A DNA stretch of 64,000 bases, from the IMG/VR virus record IMGVR_UViG_3300036770_008730; one strand, written 5' to 3'. Source of the DNA: a virus (Duplodnaviria > Caudoviricetes). Made by a program: the position numbers and the translations under genes. The notes below the pieces were generated by a model. The model saw only the letters and a list, made by a program, of their open reading frames with translations, was not told where the DNA came from and did not search any database. Shown in pieces: positions 2,915 through 49,070 of the stretch (positions are counted from its first letter, which is position 1; each line of letters begins with the position of its first letter).

Positions 2915-5900
2915 TTAAAGTTTAAGAGTCATGTCAGGACCAAAATTTTGACTTGCTAACCATTCGTCTATACCACTAGTATTATAATTGATAGCTTTTA
3001 ACTGAGTAATAATTTGATCTAGTTGGTCTTCTGTCTTACTTTTCTTCACTACTCCTCCAGTTACTGCTGACTTTTTTTCTCCTTGTTCTCCACCTTTTTT
3101 GTCACCTACCGATGGTCTCGCCTTTTTATCCGCTTCTATTAATTTAGAGAATACCGAAGCTTTGGATTCCAATACCGACATCACCCTATCGAACATCTCT
3201 GCGTCCATACTGGCTAATACCGCTATGTTTCCTGTTAATCTTCTTATTATTGAAACTTTCTCACCATCAATTGAAGATAAAGCATTTCCAAATCTTTGTA
3301 ATGATCTTGCTAAAACGTCATAAGCCATAGCGATTTTTACCATACCATCTGCCATCTGAGATATTGGATCTTGACCCACTAGTCTTTTTAACATTCCTCC
3401 AATACCACCACCTTGTTGCATCTTTGAGAATTGTTGAGCTATATAAGCAAAGGCTAGAATGTTAGATCCAACATTTTTCATATAATTTGGATCGATTTTC
3501 ATTTCGAAGAACTTTCTTCCTGTATAAAGAATTTTTGCAGTTTGAACTAAAGACGCTACTGTTCTCGCTACAATACCCACATCAGTTTCTTTTGTAACTG
3601 TTACTTGTTCTGTCACTTTACCACTCAATAATCCTCCTAATCCTGCAACTTTTGTTTTCTTTTCTGTTGTCGTTAGTAAAGCCTCGAGTTGTTTTACTAA
3701 AATCGCATATCCTATTGCCGTTACTGATATATTACCTATCCACGTTGCTGGGATCGTAGCTTTGAATGCTTGTTCGGCCTTCTTTATCATCAATGCGATA
3801 TTTGTAACTGATAAAAACACCGCGTTCATAAGTGATGCTGATAATGTGAATCCTGCAATTCCTCCTTTTTGTTTTGATAGTAATCCAAATAAAGAGTTAA
3901 ATTGTATTACTGTCGTTCCTATAGCTTGGCCCCATTCTTTGGTCGGATAGTTTTTGAAATCGGGTTTAGATTTACCTGGTATTAAAACTCCACCAGCTCC
4001 TAATGTATATCCATTAAGTAACTGTGCTGTTTTAACTATAGCATCAGACATTTGTAAGATACCCATTTTCATTTCCGCGATGACTTCTTTTCCACTTGTG
4101 AACCATCCCTTTCCTTGTAATGCTGCAAATACCGGAGCGAATGCATTTAATGCCGCACCTACACCCTCACCCCATTCTTTTGCTGGATAACTTTTACTCC
4201 AAACAACACCTTTTAGTTTAGTTGGGTCTCCAAAGTATCTTGCTGCCTCAACTATACCTTCACTGATTGCAATTATTGCGCCTTTCATTGCTGCCGCATC
4301 TACTCCTTTACCACCAAATAAACTTATTATTGATCCTTGTGATAGTATTGATAATACTGGAGCGAATGCTCCTATTGCTGTTCCAACACCCTCAGCCCAT
4401 TCTTTTGTTGGTGCTTTCTTCCAAACTCCTTTATTTTTTGGACTTGCAAATAGTTCAGCTGCGGTCATAATACCTCCTGATACGGTAACTATTGCCTTGG
4501 CAAAATCATCTGGTCCAATACCGCCACCACCGAATAATTTCATTACACCATTTGCCATTAACATACCATAGATTGGTGAAAATGCTCCTAAAGCGATTGC
4601 GATACCTGTCGCCCATTCAACTGTTGGTCCTTTCTTATATTGACCTTTTGCTAAAATAAATGAAACTCCCACTATTGTCGCAGCTATCTGAAGCATCATT
4701 TTCTGAGCTTTCTCAAATGGATCTTCCGCTCCAAAGAACTTCATTACACCACCTGCTAATCCTAATACACCTAATGCAATTATAGCAGGTACAAATGCTC
4801 CGTATAATAAAGCTACTGACATTGCCCAAGGAAGCATTCCCTGAACATTATATTTTCCTTTTATTAAGATGTGTGATGCAGCTACTATTGTTCCTGCTAC
4901 AACAAGTATTGCACCGAGACCCGCTGCAAAAATTAAGGCCTGTGGTCCAAATACAGCTAATCCTAATACAAATGCTGCAATACCAAATGCTGCTAAAGAG
5001 GCACCTACTCCTAACACCCACTTAAGACCTGGATAATTACCATATTTTCCAGCGTTTAGTATGTGTGATGCCACTGTTATTACTGCGGCGATAATTAGAA
5101 TTGCTAGTCCACCTTTTAGATATGTCATTGGACCACCCAGTGTGTTCAATATCTTAGCTACTACTCCTATTACAACTGCAGCTATGCCTAAAATTACACT
5201 AAAGAATAAAAGTTTGAATAGTCCCGCAAATGACATACTTTCAAAAAACTTCATAGCTTTCGATAGAATAAGTGCTGATATTGCTAAGGTTATTGCTAAT
5301 ATTGTAAAGAATACAGGCATTTTTATAATAGCTCCCCAAGAAACTTTTTCAATAATTTTACTTGCAATTCCGAATATTATACCTAAAATTCCAAGAACCG
5401 CACCTAAGACTAAAATTCTTAACATAGTAATGAAGTCTATTTGAAAAAATGCTTGACTTTTATATAAAATAAACGCCGAAGCAGCTATAGATAAAGTTAT
5501 TAATGTGAAGAATAATGGTAGAAGTAAGACGTTTTTCCAAGTTATATTTCCTATAATTTTAGTAGCGATTCCAAATATTACACCTAAAATACCTACTACA
5601 GCTCCAAGTGCTAAAATTCTCAACATTGTAATCCATTCTATATTAAAAAATTCTCTCGATATCCAGAAAATATACGCTGATGCTGCTATAGCTAATGATA
5701 TCAGTGTAAAGAATGCTGGAATTTTCGGAACATCTTTCCAATCCATCTTTCCAAGTGCAGTAGCTATTCTTTTTATAGAAAATGATAGAACAAAGAATAA
5801 AGCCGCTATCATTATAGAACCTATAAATGCTTGAATTCCTATTGGTTGAACCATTCCTAAGAATTTAGATGATGCCCACATTGCTATTGAAAATGCAACA

Positions 5901-7109: not shown

Positions 7110-7119
7110 TAATATATAC
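7110..7119 (+). promoter_or_regulatory. Putative late promoter TAATATATAC; a divergent copy at 7082-7091 faces the tape-measure gene
   Basis: Same motif recurs just upstream of many virion-type genes. Confidence 0.5.
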
Positions 7120-37104: not shown

Positions 37105-37230
37105 TGGATCAAAAACAAATAACGAGATACCTGTGAAAAAATCGAATACTTTGTGATTGGTCAAATGGTGCTATTCTCAAATATTTAGTGATGATAAATT
37201 TAACTCTCAAAAAAAATAATATATACATTC

Positions 37231-40688: not shown

Positions 40689-42980
40689 ATGAGAAAAGAG
40701 ATTTATGTATTAAAAAGAGATGGTCGCCAAGAGTTACTAAATTATGAAAAAATCAACAAGGTTCTTTTATGGGCAACAGAAGGTATTTCATCTGTTAGTG
40801 CATCCGATGTGGCTATGAACGCCAAATTACAAATTCATGATGGGATAAAAACCTCAGATATTCATAGAGTTTTGATACAGAGTGCTTCAGATATGATTAC
40901 TGAAGAAACACCAAACTACCAATTTGTGGCTTCTAAACTTTTAAACTATTTACTTAGGAAAGAAGTTTTTAATACCTACACAAATTTTCCAAGATTAAAG
41001 GATTTTATAAAATCAAATATTGAAAAGGGTGTTTATGATTCTGATGTTATTAATCATTATACGGAAAATGAGCTTGACAAAATTGAAGGATTTATTAAGC
41101 ATAAAAGAGATGAAGACTTGACTTATGCTGGTGTTCAACAATTAATGGATAAATATCTTGTTCAAAATAGAAAAACTGGAGATCATTATGAAACTCCTCA
41201 GTTTATGTATATGATGATTTCAATAACTCTTTTTGCTAAATATACTGGTGAAGACAGAATGGAAAAAATTAAAAGATTTTACGAGTTACTTTCTTTACAA
41301 AAGATTTCTCTTCCTACTCCTATTTTAGCTGGTGTTAGAACTCCAAACAAACAATTTTCATCTTGTGTCTTAATAGATGTGGCTGATGATTTGGATTCAA
41401 TTGGAGCATCCACACATGCTGTTTTAAGATACATTTCTAATAGAGCTGGTATCGGTCTTAACTTTAGATTAAGAGCTATTGGATCTGAAGTAAATGGTGG
41501 TGAGAAAGTTCATACTGGTTTAATTCCTTTCCTAAAAGTATTTGAATCAGCTGTTAAATCTTGTAGTCAAGGTGGTATCAGAGGTGGTGCGTCAACTGCC
41601 CATTATCCTTTCTGGCATAAAGAAATTATGGAGATCCTAGTGTTAAAAAACAATACAGGAAATGACCTTAATCGTGTTAGAAGAATGGATCATTCAATTC
41701 AATTATGTCGTTTATTCTATAAGAGATTTGTAGCTAAGGAAAACCTAACTCTTTTCTCACCAAATGATGTTCCGGATTTATATGAAGCATTTGGATATGA
41801 TAATGATAAGTTTGAATCACTTTATGCTAAGTATGAGAAAGATACTAAAATCTCTAAAGTAGTAATTCCAGCAGTTGAAGTAATGAACTTACTTCTTCAG
41901 GAAAGATTAGAGAATGGTAGAATTTACATTCAGAATTTAGATAATGCTAATACACACTCTGGTTTTATTGACAAAATCAATATGAGTAATTTATGTCAAG
42001 AAATCAATTTACCAACTACACCTTTTAAAGATGTTAATTCAGAAGAAGGTGAGATTGCACTTTGTGTACTTGGTGCTATCAATTTGGGAACTATTAAGGC
42101 TTTAGATGAATTAGAAGAAGTTTGTGAATACACGGTTAGAATGTTAGATTTTATTATTGAGATTCAAGATTATCCAGTTGCTGCAGCTAAAAAGATGTTG
42201 AAGAGAAGATCTTTAGGAGTTGGTGTTACTAACTTTGCTTATTGGTTAGCTAAAAATGGTTTAGATTACTCTAAAAACTCATTAGTTGAAATTGACCGTT
42301 TATTTGAACATATTCAATATTACTTATTGAAAGCTTCTAATAAATTGGCAAAAGAGTATGGTAAATGTGAATATTTTGATAAAACTAAGTATTCTTTAGG
42401 TCAATTACCAATCGACCATTATAACAAAAATATGGATACTCTGGTTAAAAGAGAATTTGAATGTGATTGGAATTCTCTTAGAAAAGATATTTTAGAATTT
42501 GGATTAAGAAATTCTGTTGTATCTGCTCAAATGCCTTGTGAAAGTTCTTCAGTTGTAAGTTCTTCAACTAATGGAATTGAGGCTCCGAGAAAATTAATCA
42601 CGGTGAAGAAATCAAAATCTGGCTCTCCACTTCCTGTTGTTGTTCCTGAAGTAAACAAATTAAAAAACAAATATTCAGTTTCATGGGGATTCAGTAACGA
42701 TGATATGAACAATGTTGTTGGTGTTATTCAAAAGTATTTTGACCAAGGTATTTCTGTAAATCATTACTACGATAAAAAGAAATACAAAGATGGTAATATT
42801 CCTCTTTCTGAAGTGGCTAAAGATATTATGACTTTTTACAAATTAGGAGGTAAACAAATCTATTACTCTAATTCAAAAGATTACAAATCTGACAAACTTG
42901 AAGATATTATCACAACAGAAAAGATTCATGTAATGGAAGAAGCTGGTGTAAATGATTGTGGAGATTCTTGCACAATTTAA
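40689..42980 (+). CDS. nrdA: Ribonucleotide reductase class Ia alpha subunit with ATP cone
   Basis: VLKRDGRQE ATP cone, QFSSCVL, SQGGIRGG, SNLCQEI, C-terminal CGDSCTI. Confidence 0.97.
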   Translation: MRKEIYVLKRDGRQELLNYEKINKVLLWATEGISSVSASDVAMNAKLQIHDGIKTSDIHRVLIQSASDMITEETPNYQFVASKLLNYLLRKEVFNTYTNFPRLKDFIKSNIEKGVYDSDVINHYTENELDKIEGFIKHKRDEDLTYAGVQQLMDKYLVQNRKTGDHYETPQFMYMMISITLFAKYTGEDRMEKIKRFYELLSLQKISLPTPILAGVRTPNKQFSSCVLIDVADDLDSIGASTHAVLRYISNRAGIGLNFRLRAIGSEVNGGEKVHTGLIPFLKVFESAVKSCSQGGIRGGASTAHYPFWHKEIMEILVLKNNTGNDLNRVRRMDHSIQLCRLFYKRFVAKENLTLFSPNDVPDLYEAFGYDNDKFESLYAKYEKDTKISKVVIPAVEVMNLLLQERLENGRIYIQNLDNANTHSGFIDKINMSNLCQEINLPTTPFKDVNSEEGEIALCVLGAINLGTIKALDELEEVCEYTVRMLDFIIEIQDYPVAAAKKMLKRRSLGVGVTNFAYWLAKNGLDYSKNSLVEIDRLFEHIQYYLLKASNKLAKEYGKCEYFDKTKYSLGQLPIDHYNKNMDTLVKREFECDWNSLRKDILEFGLRNSVVSAQMPCESSSVVSSSTNGIEAPRKLITVKKSKSGSPLPVVVPEVNKLKNKYSVSWGFSNDDMNNVVGVIQKYFDQGISVNHYYDKKKYKDGNIPLSEVAKDIMTFYKLGGKQIYYSNSKDYKSDKLEDIITTEKIHVMEEAGVNDCGDSCTI

Positions 42981-42987
42981 TAAAGTT

Positions 42988-43016
42988 AAAAGGAAGTTAA
43001 AACTTCCTTTTTTTTT
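42988..43016 (+). terminator. Intrinsic terminator-like hairpin
   Basis: aaaaggaagt-taaa-acttcctttt followed by a T run, between nrdA and nrdB. Confidence 0.75.
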
Positions 43017-43047
43017 CAACTATAAAAACTAACTCAATTAATAATTT

Positions 43048-44121
43048 ATGTTAAACATACTAAATCTCGACAACAGTGTTGACTACACTAAAATTCCAGT
43101 ATTCTTTGGTTCAAGAGGAATGTCCGTTCAAAGATATGACAAGTTCAAATATCCTGGATTCTTTGAACTTTTCAAGAAACAAATAAATGCTTTCTGGTTA
43201 CCAGAAGAATTCGACTTATCAAAAGATAGATTAGATTACAAAAATATGAGTGATAATGAGAAATTCATTTTTACCTCAAATTTGAAATATCAAATTTTAC
43301 TTGATAGTGTTCAGTCTCGTGGTATTCCTCATTTAACTGAAGATCTTTCAAATCCTGAGGTCGAAGCTTTTTGCTCAGCTTGGTCTTTTTTTGAGACTAT
43401 TCACTCTTATTCATACACTTTTATCATTAAAAATGTTTATGCTCAACCAGGTGAAGTATTTGATAATATCTTAAATGATAATGAAATTATTAAGAGAGCC
43501 TCATCTGTTACAAAGTATTATGATGATATGATTAACTCTTATGGAGAAACAGAACTAGATAAGAAAAAGAAGTTATACTTAACTTTAATGAGTGTAAATA
43601 TTTTAGAAGGTATCAGATTCTATGTTAGTTTTGCTTGTTCTTACGCTTTTGCACAGAATGGTAAAATGGAAGGTAATGCTAAAGTAATTTCTTTAATCAA
43701 TAAAGATGAAAACTTACACTTAGGGTTTACTCAAAAGATATTGAGAGATATGTCTATTAATAAGGAAGAGGGATTCTTTGACATTGCTAATGAGCTAAAA
43801 CCTAAAGTTGTTGAAATGTTTAAGTTGGCAGCAGAAGAAGAAATGGAATGGGCTGATTATCTTTTCCAAAATGGTTCTATGTTAGGATTAAATGCTGATA
43901 TCTTAAAAAAGTATATGATGTTTTTAACTAATTCAAGATTGAAAGCTATTGGTTTAGATCCTATTTTTGAAAAAGTTAATAATCCTATCAACTGGATTAA
44001 TGCTTGGACAAACTCTGAATCAGTTCAGGCAGCTCCACAAGAAACAGAAATCGAATCTTATAATAAGGCGGCTGTTAATAACGACTTAAGTGATAGTGAT
44101 TTTGGTGATTTTAATTTTTAA
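43048..44121 (+). CDS. nrdB: Ribonucleotide reductase class I beta subunit
   Basis: FWLPEE, LDSVQ, ETIHSYSY, LEGIRFY, DENLH, APQETEIESY. Confidence 0.97.
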   Translation: MLNILNLDNSVDYTKIPVFFGSRGMSVQRYDKFKYPGFFELFKKQINAFWLPEEFDLSKDRLDYKNMSDNEKFIFTSNLKYQILLDSVQSRGIPHLTEDLSNPEVEAFCSAWSFFETIHSYSYTFIIKNVYAQPGEVFDNILNDNEIIKRASSVTKYYDDMINSYGETELDKKKKLYLTLMSVNILEGIRFYVSFACSYAFAQNGKMEGNAKVISLINKDENLHLGFTQKILRDMSINKEEGFFDIANELKPKVVEMFKLAAEEEMEWADYLFQNGSMLGLNADILKKYMMFLTNSRLKAIGLDPIFEKVNNPINWINAWTNSESVQAAPQETEIESYNKAAVNNDLSDSDFGDFNF

Positions 44122-44160
44122 TTAAACTTTTTTAATTTTTAATTAAACTTTTTTAATTTT
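44111..44160. repeat. 21-bp tandem duplication (x2.4)
   Basis: ttaatttttaattaaactttt repeated exactly twice across the nrdB stop codon. Confidence 0.9.
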
Positions 44161-44171
44161 AATACTATAAA
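44145..44171 (+). promoter_or_regulatory. Putative 'middle' promoter AAACTT-N15-TATAAA
   Basis: Faces the non-coding structured region and the Ro60 gene. Confidence 0.6.
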
Positions 44172-44173
44172 TA

Positions 44174-44640
44174 ATCCACCTCTGAAAAAAGAGAAATTTT
44201 AGAGGTTGATATATACAAAACAAATTCGTTCTTTAACTTATTGAAACAATATTCCAGTAGCGAATTAAAGAGATACTTCGAGGTTTATGAAAAAAAACTC
44301 TTTAATAATTTACTCTGGTCAATATATAAAAAACAGACATAGTGATAGTTTGAGATACATCGTTTTAAACTACAATTCAAAAAAAAAGTGTCCGCTAATT
44401 AGCAAGACTACTGATGTCCGAGATTGAATACTCTGACTATAAGTGAAAAAATTCAGATAGCACTCTGTAAAAGGCTAAGGAATTCATCAAATTCCTTTAA
44501 ATAAATGGATGTGAGAGATGTACTTGTAAATATCGACAAAGTTTTGAGAGAATTCTTTGTGACAACTTAGACTAAGTTTTCTTGTTTGTTAATTATTAAA
44601 ATGACCAGATTAAATTAATTTTTAATCTGGTCTTTTGTTT
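44174..44640 (+). ncRNA. Putative structured RNA (array of Y-RNA-like or Ro60-binding stem-loops)
   Basis: Largest intergenic gap, no plausible ORF; two units share TAG(C/T)GA-N6-GAGATAC(T/A)TCG with compensatory N6 stems; further hairpins; adjacent to the TROVE gene. Confidence 0.6.
44603..44640 (+). terminator. Intrinsic terminator ending the structured RNA, upstream of Ro60
   Basis: gaccagattaaa-ttaatt-tttaatctggtc followed by ttttgttt. Confidence 0.75.
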
Positions 44641-44673
44641 TAAAATACTTATTAATAAATAAAAATAGAAATT

Positions 44674-46125
44674 ATGGCAAAATTTAATGCAACCTTACCG
44701 AAACAAAAAACTTTAACCACTAACTTAGCTGGTGGTAAAGCTTACAAACAATCAGAAGAAATGGCTTTTCTTTCTTTGATATTAACATCTTTTGTTAATG
44801 ACCAGTTCTATCGTGGTGCTGATACCTCAATAGACGAGTTAAAGCAAATGGTCTCTAGTATCAAAGACAAAGAGTTTATGGCAAAGGCCGCTGTTTATGC
44901 TAGAGATAAGTTTGGTATGAGAAGTATTACACATGCTCTCGCTGGTGAATTATCATCTCACCTAACAGGTGCTGAATGGGGTAAAAACTTTTATGATAAA
45001 GTAGTAATCAGACCAGATGATATGACAGAAATCTTATCTTATTATTTAGAGAATAAAACTGATAAGAAAAATCCTAAGTTTCCAAATGCTATTAAGAAAG
45101 GTTTTGCTAAAGCTTTTGATAAGTTTGATAACTATCAAATAGCTAAATATAAAAACGAGAACAAAGAGTTTAAGTTAGTTGATGTTGTTAATCTGGTTCA
45201 CCCATCACCTAATACTAGAAACAAATCCGCTTTAGAATCTTTAATCAAAGGTGAGTTGAAAAATACTCAAACTTGGGAGTCTAAGTTGTCTTTAGCTGGT
45301 CAGTTAGCTGAGACAGAAGAAGATTTAACAAAGTTAAAATCGGATGCTTGGTCTGAACTGATTCTATCTAAGAAAATTGGATATATGGCTCTGTTAAAGA
45401 ATTTGAGAAATATTATTCAACAATCACCTGATTCGGTAGATTCGGCTTGTGAATTACTTACTAATGAAAGTATGATTAAATCATCAAGAGTTCTTCCTTT
45501 CCGTTTCACAACCGCTTATGAAGAATTACAAAAGTTAGATTCATCTGACCTTACTCGTAAAGTGATTATTGCACTTAACCAGGCTTTAGAAACATCACTT
45601 TGTAATGTTCCTAAGTTAGATGGTTCTACTTTGGTAGTTTTAGATGTTAGTGGTTCAATGATGGGTAAACCATCTGAGATTGCTTCACTTTTTGGAGCGG
45701 TGTTAGCTAAAGTAAACAATGCTGATGTCCTAACATTCTCAACTGACTCTAACTATCTTTCTTACAATCCAATTGATTCGGTATTAAGTATTAGAGAAGG
45801 ATTTAGATTTGCTGGTGGTGGAACAAACTTTCCATCAATCTTTAGAAAAGCGAATAAGTCCTACGACAACATAATAATTCTGAGTGATATGCAAGGTTGG
45901 ATTGGTGGTGATACTCCTGTTAATGAGTTTAATGCTTATAAGAAAAAGTATGGTTGTAATCCTCATGTATTTTCTTGGGATTTAGCGGGTTATTCAACTT
46001 TACAATTTCCCGAGAATCAGGTGTATTGTTTATCTGGTTTCTCTGATAAAGTGTTTCAAGTGATGTCTTTGTTAAAAGAAGATAAACAAGCACTTATTAA
46101 TCAGATTAAACAGATCCAGTTGTAA
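44674..46125 (+). CDS. Ro60/Rsr-like TROVE + vWA RNA-binding protein
   Basis: TNLAGGKAY, FVNDQFY, KAAVYAR..GMRS, ALLKNLRNI, VLPFRF, vWA MIDAS DVSGSM, GGGTNF, ILSDMQ. Confidence 0.93.
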   Translation: MAKFNATLPKQKTLTTNLAGGKAYKQSEEMAFLSLILTSFVNDQFYRGADTSIDELKQMVSSIKDKEFMAKAAVYARDKFGMRSITHALAGELSSHLTGAEWGKNFYDKVVIRPDDMTEILSYYLENKTDKKNPKFPNAIKKGFAKAFDKFDNYQIAKYKNENKEFKLVDVVNLVHPSPNTRNKSALESLIKGELKNTQTWESKLSLAGQLAETEEDLTKLKSDAWSELILSKKIGYMALLKNLRNIIQQSPDSVDSACELLTNESMIKSSRVLPFRFTTAYEELQKLDSSDLTRKVIIALNQALETSLCNVPKLDGSTLVVLDVSGSMMGKPSEIASLFGAVLAKVNNADVLTFSTDSNYLSYNPIDSVLSIREGFRFAGGGTNFPSIFRKANKSYDNIIILSDMQGWIGGDTPVNEFNAYKKKYGCNPHVFSWDLAGYSTLQFPENQVYCLSGFSDKVFQVMSLLKEDKQALINQIKQIQL

Positions 46126-46129
46126 AAAG

Positions 46130-46155
46130 AAAACCACTCAATGAGTGGTTTTTTT
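46130..46155. terminator. Bidirectional intrinsic terminator
   Basis: aaaaccactc-aat-gagtggtttt followed by T run, between convergent genes. Confidence 0.85.
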
Positions 46156-46196
46156 GTATCTATTCTTCGATTCTATCTAATTCATACGAAACAAAA

Positions 46197-46967
46197 TTAT
46201 CCGTTGTAGTAGTAATTGAAGTCCTCTTCAATATACCATTCGATTGAAGCCTCTACTTCTCCCCAATCTATAGTAAAGGTTTTTGATTCATTATCATATT
46301 CACCAATTCCATAGATGTCATCTTCAGTGACAAATCCAACCATGATTATATCTTCTTGAATATTGTAATCTAAATACTTTTGTAAGTTTATACCAGTGCC
46401 AGTAACAGTTTGTCTTTTGTAATAATCTGTGAGTTGTTTTATACCTCTTTGGAATTCTGGTGTAAATTTTGATTTATTTAAATAATCGGAATATACTTTA
46501 TCTAATTCTTCCTTTTTGATAGTATCTGATTCAAACTGAATATCGAATCTATATTTGATTAGTTCATTTGATACCGTGCTTAAGTAATCGTTCTTTTTGA
46601 GTTTTATTCCTTTTTCAGAAACTCTACTAATCATAGGTTCAATAGAACCAATTATCATTGATAGCTTAGATTGTATTTGTTTGAATTGTTCGAACGTTCC
46701 GTTTTTTTCGGATAAGAATTGAATTGATATGCCATATTCAATTTTATATTGTTTATCTTTTTCTAAATCTACATTAATAATGTGTCCTCTTTCATCAACA
46801 ATATGACAACTTTTTGTGATTTCGAAATCTTTGTCATCTATTATATCCCATAAACTATCTTCAAATTCTGACCAATCTAAAGATTTAGACTTAATAAAAT
46901 CGTTTAATTCTCTGGATATACCAAATGATTCATTAATAAAAAAGTTTTCAAATCTTTTAATTTTCAT
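46197..46967 (-). CDS. Putative head-internal protein
   Basis: MKIKRFENFFINE leader directly after TAATATATAC (46971-46980). Confidence 0.6.
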   Translation of the reverse strand: MKIKRFENFFINESFGISRELNDFIKSKSLDWSEFEDSLWDIIDDKDFEITKSCHIVDERGHIINVDLEKDKQYKIEYGISIQFLSEKNGTFEQFKQIQSKLSMIIGSIEPMISRVSEKGIKLKKNDYLSTVSNELIKYRFDIQFESDTIKKEELDKVYSDYLNKSKFTPEFQRGIKQLTDYYKRQTVTGTGINLQKYLDYNIQEDIIMVGFVTEDDIYGIGEYDNESKTFTIDWGEVEASIEWYIEEDFNYYYNG

Positions 46968-46982
46968 AGAGTATATATTAAA

Positions 46983-47753
46983 TTACTTCCAAATTTTTTC
47001 AAGATTAATCTTTGAATTAATGTCTATAACTTTGTTTCCTTTTCTAAGAGTATATCTTTGTATAGGTGATAATCTTTTAACTATATTTGATACTTTTTTG
47101 ATTTCTGATTTATCCATATCATAATTAAATATTTGAATTAGATTTTCAATTTCACTAAAAGAAACTTGATTTTTTTGACCTAGAAAATAAGTAAAGTTAT
47201 AATTAAGATCATTATATTTTATTGCATCTGGATCTGTTGATTTACTAATCAAAAAATTAGTAAGACAGTTTTCGATGCCTATAGTTGGAAGAGTATATTT
47301 ATAACCATCTATTTTTATGTTTTTTTCTGATTTATCATATGATATTTTCAATTCTTCATCAAAAGTAAAATAGTTAAAGTGCTTAGGACTAAACTCTATA
47401 ATCTCTTCTTTACCATTTTCTTCATCGAAGTAATTTAATGATACAATCTTTCCTTTAGTGAAGTGTACTATTTCAAAAAAAATGAAAATTACATCGATGC
47501 TTTTTATATCACTGAAAGTATATCCATTAGAGAGTATTGTATTTTTCTCAACTACACTTTTCAATTTTTCAATTATTAGACCTAAGTTATCTCTAACATA
47601 TCCATACTCATATTCAATAATATCTTGTATATCGGCTTTCTTTATGAAAATTTCAAAGTCATCTTTGTAAAAAAGTCCTTGTGATGGAAGATTTTTAACA
47701 TCTAGTTTCTTCTGTATATTTAGTAAACCTTTAATTATATTAAGTAAATTCAT
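46983..47753 (-). CDS. Baseplate hub / tail assembly protein-like (T4 gp26-type)
   Basis: LPSQGLFY near the N-terminus and YKYTLPTIG later; probable start MNLLN at 47753. Confidence 0.5.
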   Translation of the reverse strand: MNLLNIIKGLLNIQKKLDVKNLPSQGLFYKDDFEIFIKKADIQDIIEYEYGYVRDNLGLIIEKLKSVVEKNTILSNGYTFSDIKSIDVIFIFFEIVHFTKGKIVSLNYFDEENGKEEIIEFSPKHFNYFTFDEELKISYDKSEKNIKIDGYKYTLPTIGIENCLTNFLISKSTDPDAIKYNDLNYNFTYFLGQKNQVSFSEIENLIQIFNYDMDKSEIKKVSNIVKRLSPIQRYTLRKGNKVIDINSKINLEKIWK

Positions 47754-47820: not shown

Positions 47821-48546
47821 ATGTTATTAAACGGTGATTGTTTTGAATACCTTAAAACTATAGAGTCTTCTTCTGTTGATTTGGTTTTAGTAGATCCGCC
47901 ATATGTTATTTCGAAAAAATCGTATTTTACGAAGCATTCATCTAGTGCCTCAAAAGAGATGGTTACTAAATATAACTTTTCTATTGATTTTGGAGATTGG
48001 GATAAACAAGAAATAGATTTAGATTCACTTTTTAGTGAGTATAACAGAGTGCTGAAGGATGGTGGTAGTCTAATAATATTCTATGATGTTTGGAAATCAT
48101 CAAAGATAAAACTATTTGCTGATAAGTATAAATTTAACCAGCCTCGTGTTGGTCAGTGGCAAAAAACAAATCCTGTTCCTATAAATTCAAAAGTAAATTA
48201 TCTTTCTAATTCAATAGAGTTCTTTTTTTCATTTGTTAAAGGTAAGAAACCCACATTCAATAGTTCCTATGACAATGGTGTTTATAAATATCCAATTTGT
48301 CATGGTGGTGAAAGAACAGAACATCCAACTCAAAAGCCTCTATCACTAATTAAAGATTTGGTGGAAAAACATTCAAATCCAGGAGACTTGATTTTAGATA
48401 CATTTGCTGGTTCTGGTACTACAGGAGAAGCTTGTACACTATTAAATAGAAAGTATATTTTAATCGAAAAGGATGAAAAATATTTCAAAATTTTAAAAAA
48501 TCGAATTGAAAATTTATCAACAAAATCAAATATAGATAATATATAA
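47821..48546 (+). CDS. Orphan DNA N6-A/N4-C methyltransferase (beta class)
   Basis: GDC, VDPPY, HPTQKP, DTFAGSGTTG; no adjacent restriction endonuclease. Confidence 0.92.
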   Translation: MLLNGDCFEYLKTIESSSVDLVLVDPPYVISKKSYFTKHSSSASKEMVTKYNFSIDFGDWDKQEIDLDSLFSEYNRVLKDGGSLIIFYDVWKSSKIKLFADKYKFNQPRVGQWQKTNPVPINSKVNYLSNSIEFFFSFVKGKKPTFNSSYDNGVYKYPICHGGERTEHPTQKPLSLIKDLVEKHSNPGDLILDTFAGSGTTGEACTLLNRKYILIEKDEKYFKILKNRIENLSTKSNIDNI

Positions 48547-49010: not shown

Positions 49011-49070
49011 AGTTTTAAAATTAACAGAATGGTTATCAAAATTAATATATACTAAAAATTTACAGATTAG

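Follow-up and report, generated by a model that had tools for sequence, protein, structure and literature searches.

Y RNAs are thought to tether the Ro60 protein to effectors, as a Y RNA of Deinococcus does with PNPase, and to our knowledge the only effector-side module recognised in a bacterial Y RNA is a tRNA mimic. YrlA RNAs are roughly 100-200 nucleotides (nt) long, compared with about 350-385 nt for the RNA described below. In the characterised bacteria each locus encodes a pair of Y RNAs, of which one has a tRNA-like module and the other forms a long hairpin (PMC4201824). M. smegmatis makes both by processing a single precursor encoded upstream of rsr, and the hairpin-type second Y RNAs, namely YrlB of S. 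Typhimurium and M. smegmatis and Yrn2 of D. radiodurans, have a small pyrimidine-rich loop (PMC4201824). The Ro60 protein of Thermus phage phiLo binds Yrl1 and Yrl2, which are encoded upstream of its gene and are also found in complexes with the host PNPase; each is a single 5'-3' stem around one internal bulge, and no large pseudoknotted domain was reported (PMC12135203). Here we analyzed a 64,000-nt stretch of a tailed-phage genome (Duplodnaviria; Caudoviricetes; IMG/VR record IMGVR_UViG_3300036770_008730), hereafter the window, which carries a Ro60/Rsr gene. Directly upstream of this gene, from 44254 to approximately 44640 on the plus strand, lies a noncoding RNA, about 350-385 nt long, which is probably a Y-RNA-type partner of Ro60; we put the probability of this reading at roughly 0.7. 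That a real, expressed and structured RNA exists at the locus is virtually certain. It is either one bipartite molecule or two RNAs cut from one precursor. The Ro60/Y-RNA system itself is known; the new element is a large, two-part Y-like RNA in huge freshwater phages, and no description of it was found in the literature searched.

The gene at 44674-46125 (+) encodes 483 amino acids (aa) with a TROVE HEAT-repeat ring plus a von Willebrand factor A (vWA) domain, and its terminator lies at 46127-46155. The original prediction for this locus, made from the sequence alone, had called it a TROVE gene, and database searches agreed: the product matched Pfam TROVE (2.9e-20; vWA_Ro60 was weak) and PHROG 850 'RNA-binding protein' (2.9e-51), and its residues 12-474 gave a full-length match to phiLo Ro60 (PDB 9KOP/9L5Y; 7e-24), with Xenopus and human Ro60 at about 1e-4. 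Judged by these similarities, the product is a true Ro60 homologue. Its closest database relative is encoded by the uncultured phage LR745206 (634 kilobases (kb); 72.7% aa identity). Other relatives come from 100-480-kb contigs of IMG/VR and from numerous contigs of freshwater metagenomes, and the window DNA recurs in freshwater and subsurface metagenomes. At 47-56% identity we found relatives on contigs of metagenome-assembled genomes labelled Saprospiraceae, Lewinellaceae, Chitinophagales and other taxa, and at 32-37% in genomes of Clostridia. The 552-nt gap in front of the gene (44122-44673), which had been singled out as the largest non-coding stretch, is indeed the longest part of the window without open reading frames (ORFs) of at least 100 aa.

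We compared the region 43000-47000 with contigs from four lake metatranscriptome RNA runs, which belong to four studies. The contigs that closely matched the window RNA (0-3 differences) were confined to 44255-44605. The longest covered 44255-44605 over its whole 351 nt with one mismatch, and others covered 44297-44600, 44284-44591 and 44342-44604. Essentially no coverage was seen on the TROVE ORF or on the ribonucleotide reductase (RNR) ORFs upstream, where two stray pieces of 18-30 nt came from unrelated contigs or from those of a relative. Given that coverage is limited to the RNA, DNA carry-over would not produce this pattern. In addition, contigs of a related variant reached a depth of 58 in a 120-megabase RNA run. 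The RNA is thus far more abundant than the flanking mRNAs, and it is a discrete stable RNA that is longer than typical Y RNAs. A lack of transcripts from the region had been named beforehand as an outcome that would speak against the original prediction; contigs from all four RNA runs show the contrary. We assigned the RNA to the plus strand because of its terminator and its many G:U pairs; we place its 5' end near 44254/5 only provisionally, and the same caution applies to the fate of the terminator hairpin.

In about 90 related phage loci the RNA lies directly upstream of TROVE and points the same way. The upstream neighbour gene differs between these loci and may even point in the opposite direction, while the adjacency of RNA and TROVE stays; in the 12 relatives found first, about 450 nt 5' of TROVE were conserved despite a differing upstream gene. 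A scan of IMG/VR with a pattern of the RNA only gave 46 matches, of which 26 contained both units and 20 were chance matches. Every both-unit match with enough downstream DNA adjoined TROVE downstream, and the chance matches showed neither. Among 80 metagenome TROVE loci, nearly all of those with 400 nt or more of upstream sequence show the two TACWTCG motifs, spaced 85-90 nt apart, and the RNA measured 356-433 nt among the first 23 loci. Some loci depart from this arrangement. An additional ORF (L093) or a tRNA (L122) can stand between RNA and TROVE, and at two loci whose TROVE products are 66-67% identical to that of the window (L116, L142) the large RNA is absent and a tRNA array and a small ORF lie upstream instead. 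At these two loci we also observed a GC-rich structured stretch (GGGGGATGCCCC...AACCGAATTGACTAC...) before the last tRNA upstream of TROVE.

To determine the structure, we used an alignment (A2) of 67 distinct RNAs that are 57-76% identical to the window. Helices were scored by an unbiased scan for doubly changed pairs and by per-helix counts, for which slid controls were 7-73% canonical. RNAalifold predicted 37 pairs on A2, 27 of them with compensatory changes, and covariation in the alignment backs no fewer than 10 helices, among them a long-range one and two pseudoknots. Global and constrained minimum free energy folds of the central region contradicted the covariation, and were not used for helices P4-P6. 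The gap had been read as an array of three or four repeated units; the comparative data instead point to one multi-domain RNA with two homologous modules.

Module 1 (44254-44320, +) corresponds to unit 1 of the original prediction and forms a Y-RNA-type handle hairpin. Its basal helix P1a, CCAG[U]AG/CU-CUGG (44254-44260 / 44313-44318), has 6 pairs that are 100% canonical, one of them compensatory, and a bulged U (U44258) that is kept in 66 of 67 relatives. An internal loop, CGA / AAUUUA, separates it from P1b (44264-44273 / 44297-44306; 10 pairs, 95% canonical, 9 compensatory), and the invariant UACUUCG follows at 44274-44280 within an A-rich loop of 25-35 nt. The general form is CCAG[U]AG-YGA-(stem)-GWUACUUCG...(stem')-AAUUUACU-CUGG. 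In a formal test on 42 distinct relatives, 96.1% of cells were paired and 11 of 16 pairs were compensatory; none of 500 shuffles was as good, and slid controls reached 34-54%. The outer ccag/ctgg stem and the covarying inner stem proposed earlier are therefore sound. At the DNA level, TAGYGA-N6-GAGWTACWTCG occurs exactly twice in the 64 kb of the window, versus 0.02 expected, and this likewise supports the earlier recognition of units 1 and 2 as related.

Module 2 (44333-44589, +) is a second handle that is closed by the long-range helix P2 and carries a large insert. P2 pairs ACAGACA[U]AG (44333-44342) with CU-UGUUUGU (44581-44589) through 9 pairs that are 100% canonical and include 6 compensatory ones; among relatives the variants are GCAAACA/UGUUUGC, GCAGACA/UGUCUGC and GAGGACA/UGUCCUC, slid controls being 41-49%. 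The bulged U (U44340) is present in 67 of 67 relatives. The 5' strand of P2 is followed by UGA, by the hairpin UAGUUU/AAACUA (44346-44351 / 44367-44372) and, inside it, by GAGAUACAUCG (44352-44362). The 3' side of the internal loop holds the insert of about 210 nt (44373-44580), so that the second copy has the general form NNACA[U]AG-CGA-UAGUUU-GAGAUACUUCG...AAACUA...(~210-nt insert)...AAAUUUWCU-UGUNN, whose 3' strand AAAUUUWCU-UGU mirrors the AAUUUACU-CUGG of module 1. With its bulged-U helix, UAGYGA/UUUACU internal loop, stem and UACUUCG, module 2 repeats the handle of module 1. The tagttt/aaacta stem suggested for unit 2 is supported in 44 of 67 relatives. The proposed gacat/gtgtc closure could form in the window but has no comparative support; ACAGACA[U]AG instead takes part in the 9 pairs of P2.

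The insert contains a variable central region (44387-44476, +) of three hairpins, P4-P6, which shows wide variation in length and sequence among relatives. The stems of P4 covary, and the helix often equals GACAGCAA; the exact pairing of P4 versus the P5 base is provisional. The base of P5 (44409-44412 / 44442-44445) has 4 pairs, 86% canonical and 3 compensatory, and outer P6 (44459-44461 / 44474-44476) has 3 pairs, 88% canonical and all 3 compensatory. The motif ACAGCAA is exact in 16 of 67 relatives and ACAGC is present in 39 of 67; this segment consists of a hairpin loop and a stem that covaries away, and ACAGCAA was absent from the TROVE strand in four of five other phage TROVE loci checked. 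The hairpin GUCCGAG/CUCUGAC that had been proposed as unit 3 does exist (44416-44422 / 44431-44437), but it is a variable helix rather than a conserved one. GUCCGA itself occurs in only 12 of 67 relatives, and the supposed likeness to the metazoan-type GUCCGA/UUGAC helix is a coincidence.

Hairpin P7, AAGGAAUU/AAUUCCUU (44477-44484 / 44490-44497, +), follows; its scored part (44477-44482 / 44492-44497) has 6 pairs, 99% canonical and 2 compensatory. The first pseudoknot, PK1 (44477-44511, +), arises from pairing of the P7 loop CAUC (44485-44488) with GAUG (44508-44511). The 3 scored pairs (44485-44487 / 44509-44511) are all compensatory, with the variants CAU/AUG, CAG/CUG, UAU/AUA and AGU/ACU, and 85% canonical versus 29-50% in slid controls. 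In a short-form subclade, P7 and PK1 are both missing. The conserved 3' domain (44504-44590, +) comprises P8 (44512-44515 / 44523-44526; 4 pairs, 91% canonical, 3 compensatory), the second pseudoknot PK2 (44519-44521 / 44530-44532; 3 pairs, 89% canonical, 2 compensatory), P9 with the loop UUUUGAGAGAAUU (44536-44541 / 44555-44560; 6 pairs, 94% canonical, 3 compensatory), a CUUAGRCUAA segment and the 3' strand of P2. What had been taken for a degenerate fourth unit (44508-44534) belongs to this domain, as a hairpin with a pseudoknot, and is no repeat unit. The segment CUUAGRCUAA(G), at 44566-44577 and homologous positions, is conserved and close to palindromic, its halves being only 1-3 nt apart. 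Since this leaves no room for a hairpin loop, the segment could conceivably make an intermolecular (dimer) or tertiary contact.

We also built covariance models of unit 1 (R1) and of the 3' domain (R2). The sole R2 match was the window itself (81.7 bits), with no match in 49 distant TROVE loci (32-56% aa identity), and so the 3' domain is clade-specific. With R1, 21 of the same 49 loci gave matches, 29 in total (E 3e-8 to 0.45), all of them upstream of TROVE and on its strand, the crAss-like phage cr111_1 included. There were zero R1 matches in 21 control loci without TROVE. Several matches had loop insertions of 22-87 nt, in some cases coinciding with YrlA matches. It had been proposed that a covariance model should reveal a motif shared by regions upstream of other TROVE genes, and the handle is such a motif. 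Three near-complete phage genomes (436-483 kb) contained exactly one handle match each, beside TROVE. On other viral contigs, R1 matched within large tRNA arrays (L059, L063) and, at L058, upstream of a TROVE gene with 48% identity, and the unit 1 pattern with one extra N gave six matches in IMG/VR that included genuine, more distant handle RNAs. LR745206 has three extra handle copies between tRNA genes, at about 343, 369 and 389 kb. The presence of handle RNAs inside tRNA arrays points to a trans-acting gene family. Within our extracts the LR745206 copies lie at L191 1062-1129, L192 1037-1172 and L193 998-1101, with TROVE far away. The handle-type RNAs in phage tRNA arrays (LR745206, L059, L063), all remote from TROVE genes, have loop insertions of 0-85 nt, and one L059 copy (4068-4190) encloses a tRNA-Phe called by ARAGORN.

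Many TROVE genes of the relatives with 32-56% identity sit behind tRNA arrays with sub-threshold YrlA matches; the Rfam YrlA model (RF02553, gathering score 69 bits) scored 28-39 bits on related loci. At one of them the R1 match (L152 427-560) brackets the Rfam YrlA match (438-548). At another, beside a 55%-identical TROVE gene (L149), the Rfam alignment reads UUCAGA-AGUGCU-AUAAGGG-UUACUUCGA...[T arm, D arm]...CCCUUAU-UAUUUUU-CUCUGA, which matches unit 1 in layout, a tRNA-like core being placed in the loop. On the strength of such alignments, we regard the handle as likely homologous to the Y-RNA handle. It is common to short hairpin RNAs, YrlA-like tRNA mimics and the larger pseudoknotted RNA, and the family is widespread: it occurs next to TROVE genes in Bacteroidota, in Clostridia and in both crAss-like and huge phages, as well as inside phage tRNA arrays. 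The handle family had no match in Rfam 15, and no description of it was found in the literature searched.

Upstream of the RNA, a 52-nt box (44165-44216, +) is kept in 87 related loci, 45 of them unique, and the full box occurs once in the window. It consists of CTATAAAT (44165-44172, +), a hairpin with arms at 44179-44188 / 44196-44205 (+) and TGATATATAC (44207-44216, +). The arms show partial covariation, with the pairs CCTCT/AGAGG, CCCTT/AAGGG, CCTTC/GAAGG and CCCTC/GAGGG in relatives. TGATATATAC matches a promoter-like motif, T[AGT]ATATATA[AC], which has 24 sites in the window versus 5.1 expected, an approximately five-fold enrichment that none of 100 shuffles equalled. These sites frequently lie 5-25 nt 5' of start codons, examples being 7110-7119, 37217-37226, 48537-48546 and 49043-49052 (+) and 46971-46980 (-), and the motif is probably the phage's own promoter element. 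It is thus probable that the box is a promoter or regulatory region of the RNA. The RNA-run contigs leave the box uncovered, and this suggests either 5' processing of the RNA or control at the DNA level. The conservation of CTATAAAWAATCCACC and the partly covarying hairpin (44165-44205; 87 loci) is stronger than a plain promoter would require, and this part may act as an operator, as a 5' leader of the RNA or in some other way.

At the other end, a terminator scan identified an intrinsic terminator (44603-44641, +) with a 12-bp stem (44603-44614 / 44621-44632) followed by a U-run that ends about 33 nt before the TROVE ATG. Its 9 scored pairs (44603-44611 / 44624-44632) are 96% canonical and 6 are compensatory, and GACCAGA in the stem is unusually conserved in sequence. 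Because no promoter-like motif was found between the terminator and the ATG, TROVE is probably expressed by read-through. At one locus (L011) a GC-rich insertion of about 100 nt separates the RNA terminator from the TROVE ATG; the other loci do not have it. On the far side of the gap, the window encodes a class I-type RNR pair (large and small subunit) at 40689-44121, upstream of the RNA. In relatives L002-L016, the RNR large-subunit homologue is only about 30% identical and a match to the small subunit is lacking, so that the nucleotide-metabolism module beside the RNA has been exchanged.

We considered whether the RNA could be a cis-acting leader or attenuator of the TROVE mRNA, autoregulated by Ro60 or sensing a ligand, with the abundant RNA as a terminated by-product. 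A strong terminator about 33 nt before the ATG, with no promoter-like motif in between, is what such a leader would have, and the conserved GACCAGA of the terminator stem resembles the module 1 basal helix, so that alternative pairings are conceivable. However, the arms of module 1 and of the terminator do not covary with each other: subclades with CCG/CGG or UCAG/CUGA mostly keep the terminator unchanged, and no co-variation was seen for a swapped pairing of the two, whether as a closing stem or as an antiterminator. Moreover, the handle module occurs as free-standing genes in tRNA arrays 100-150 kb from TROVE and as tandem copies elsewhere, and an ORF (L093), a tRNA (L122) or 100 nt (L011) can intervene between RNA and TROVE. 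An RNA of about 350 nt with two pseudoknots is also far larger than any attenuator we know of. We therefore consider a leader unlikely as the whole explanation, although it could hold together with a role as Ro60 partner.

Nor does a function unrelated to Ro60 seem probable. The RNA might be a scaffold, a ribozyme or a mimic directed at host machinery that merely travels along in a conserved block of RNA and nucleotide-metabolism genes; neither Rfam nor the distant TROVE loci contain a relative of the clade-specific large domain, the neighbourhood downstream of TROVE is syntenic, and two TROVE relatives lack the RNA. Against this, adjacency and orientation relative to TROVE are kept in about 90 loci while the upstream gene varies, and the handle is specifically enriched upstream of 32-56%-identical TROVE genes in several phyla. 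The idea that we started from, in which three or four short Y-like units stand in an array as independent, separate Ro60 ligands, is now very improbable. Two homologous modules do exist, tandem short units are found in relatives such as L161, L166 and L058, and processing into separate RNAs is possible, one contig (X19) starting at 44342, near the start of module 2. However, the helix that closes unit 2 spans 250 nt and thereby encloses units 3 and 4 within module 2, these two lack handle motifs, and a single 351-nt contig spans both modules. In place of a short multi-copy ligand class, we see a bipartite RNA of about 350-385 nt made of one short hairpin and one module with a 240-nt domain. 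We also examined a diverged RNase P RNA, as suggested by GUGAAAAAGUCCGG, the bulged U and the length, and rejected it: no model matched at E<10, and by eye the P4-like pairing fails in several relatives.

A number of observations weigh against a Y-RNA-type partner of Ro60. The link to Ro60 rests on gene neighbourhood and homology of the handle, and the position of the terminator right before the ORF, with no promoter after it, would also fit a cis-regulatory role. Rfam 15 gave nothing at gathering thresholds over the whole window and only noise at E<10 in the gap; in particular, there was no Y_RNA or YrlA match at 44100-44700. By position, the handle is nevertheless homologous to the stem of the YrlA-like RNAs next to related TROVE genes. 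Defining features of YrlA are likewise missing, as the T-loop pattern occurs in 0 of 67 relatives and GNCGAAN0-1G in 7 of 67 with no conserved position. Since ARAGORN also found no tRNA or tmRNA in the window, the earlier statement that these units lack a tRNA T-loop is correct. R1 detected no handle at the phiLo Ro60 locus or at L116 and L142. Pfam and PHROG searches yielded no candidate effector among the neighbouring genes, and the gene for one effector candidate, RtcB, was absent from the four related phage genomes searched. Finally, the RNA-run contigs carry no strand, exact-end or level information, which bears on the 3' end and on whether there is one RNA or two.

If the RNA is a partner of Ro60, it would probably be transcribed from the promoter-like TGATATATAC (44207-44216) and then processed at its 5' end. 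The terminator would set a high RNA-to-protein ratio, with TROVE made by read-through, and the transcript may be cut into two RNAs. By analogy with known Y RNAs, the handle or handles would dock Ro60, possibly two rings per RNA, and the large domain would tether or gate Ro60 towards a host or phage effector or substrate. Any specific effector model is tentative, and we hold it to be rather doubtful. A still bolder proposal is that the module 2 domain, with its two pseudoknots and length of about 240 nt, constitutes a new class of large structured RNA that replaces tRNA mimicry in effector recruitment, docking one or two Ro60 rings on a specific host machine or RNA substrate (such as a ribosome, exoribonuclease or defence nuclease) and thereby redirecting RNA surveillance in huge-phage infection; we regard this as unlikely. 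Roles in RNA quality control or anti-defence are speculation. If the proposal were true, Y RNAs would be modular adaptors with a freely exchangeable cargo domain. The large variant assembles from small lake metatranscriptomes whereas the neighbouring mRNAs do not, and the locus is a concrete, testable system for the role of Ro60 in phage infection and for the evolution of Y-RNA cargo.

The protein of the window has its closest solved relative in phiLo Ro60 (9KOP, 9L5Y), and the two loci share the arrangement of RNA upstream: two partner RNAs in phiLo, module 1 and module 2 in the window. The phiLo Yrl RNAs form a stem-bulge-stem with a CGAA motif, and module 1 has UUCGA(A) in many relatives; the loci differ in that the R1 handle was not found in phiLo. 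The handle helix CCAG[U]AG also differs from GGUCCGA and GNCGAA. Module 1 may be compared with the hairpin-type second Y RNAs YrlB and Yrn2, as it is a long hairpin without a tRNA-like domain beside a larger RNA module upstream of Ro60. Its loop, in contrast to theirs, is large (25-35 nt), A-rich and contains UACUUCG, a comparison made for YrlB by description only. Like YrlA (RF02553; PMC4201824), the RNA of the window is encoded upstream of the Ro60 gene on the same strand, and its outer helix, internal loop and inner helix give the same stem architecture; the YrlA-like RNAs beside 50-56%-identical TROVE genes have UUACUUCG and CUCUGR as in module 1. It differs from YrlA in that it has no T and D arms, no conserved GNCGAAN0-1G and no Rfam match, and in that the 240-nt pseudoknotted domain of module 2 is placed on the 3' side of the internal loop and not in the apical loop. 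By this analogy, module 2 would take the role that the Y RNA with a tRNA-like domain (YrlA) has at bacterial Ro60 loci, and the two modules together would fit the bacterial scheme of two Y RNAs with a new cargo domain.

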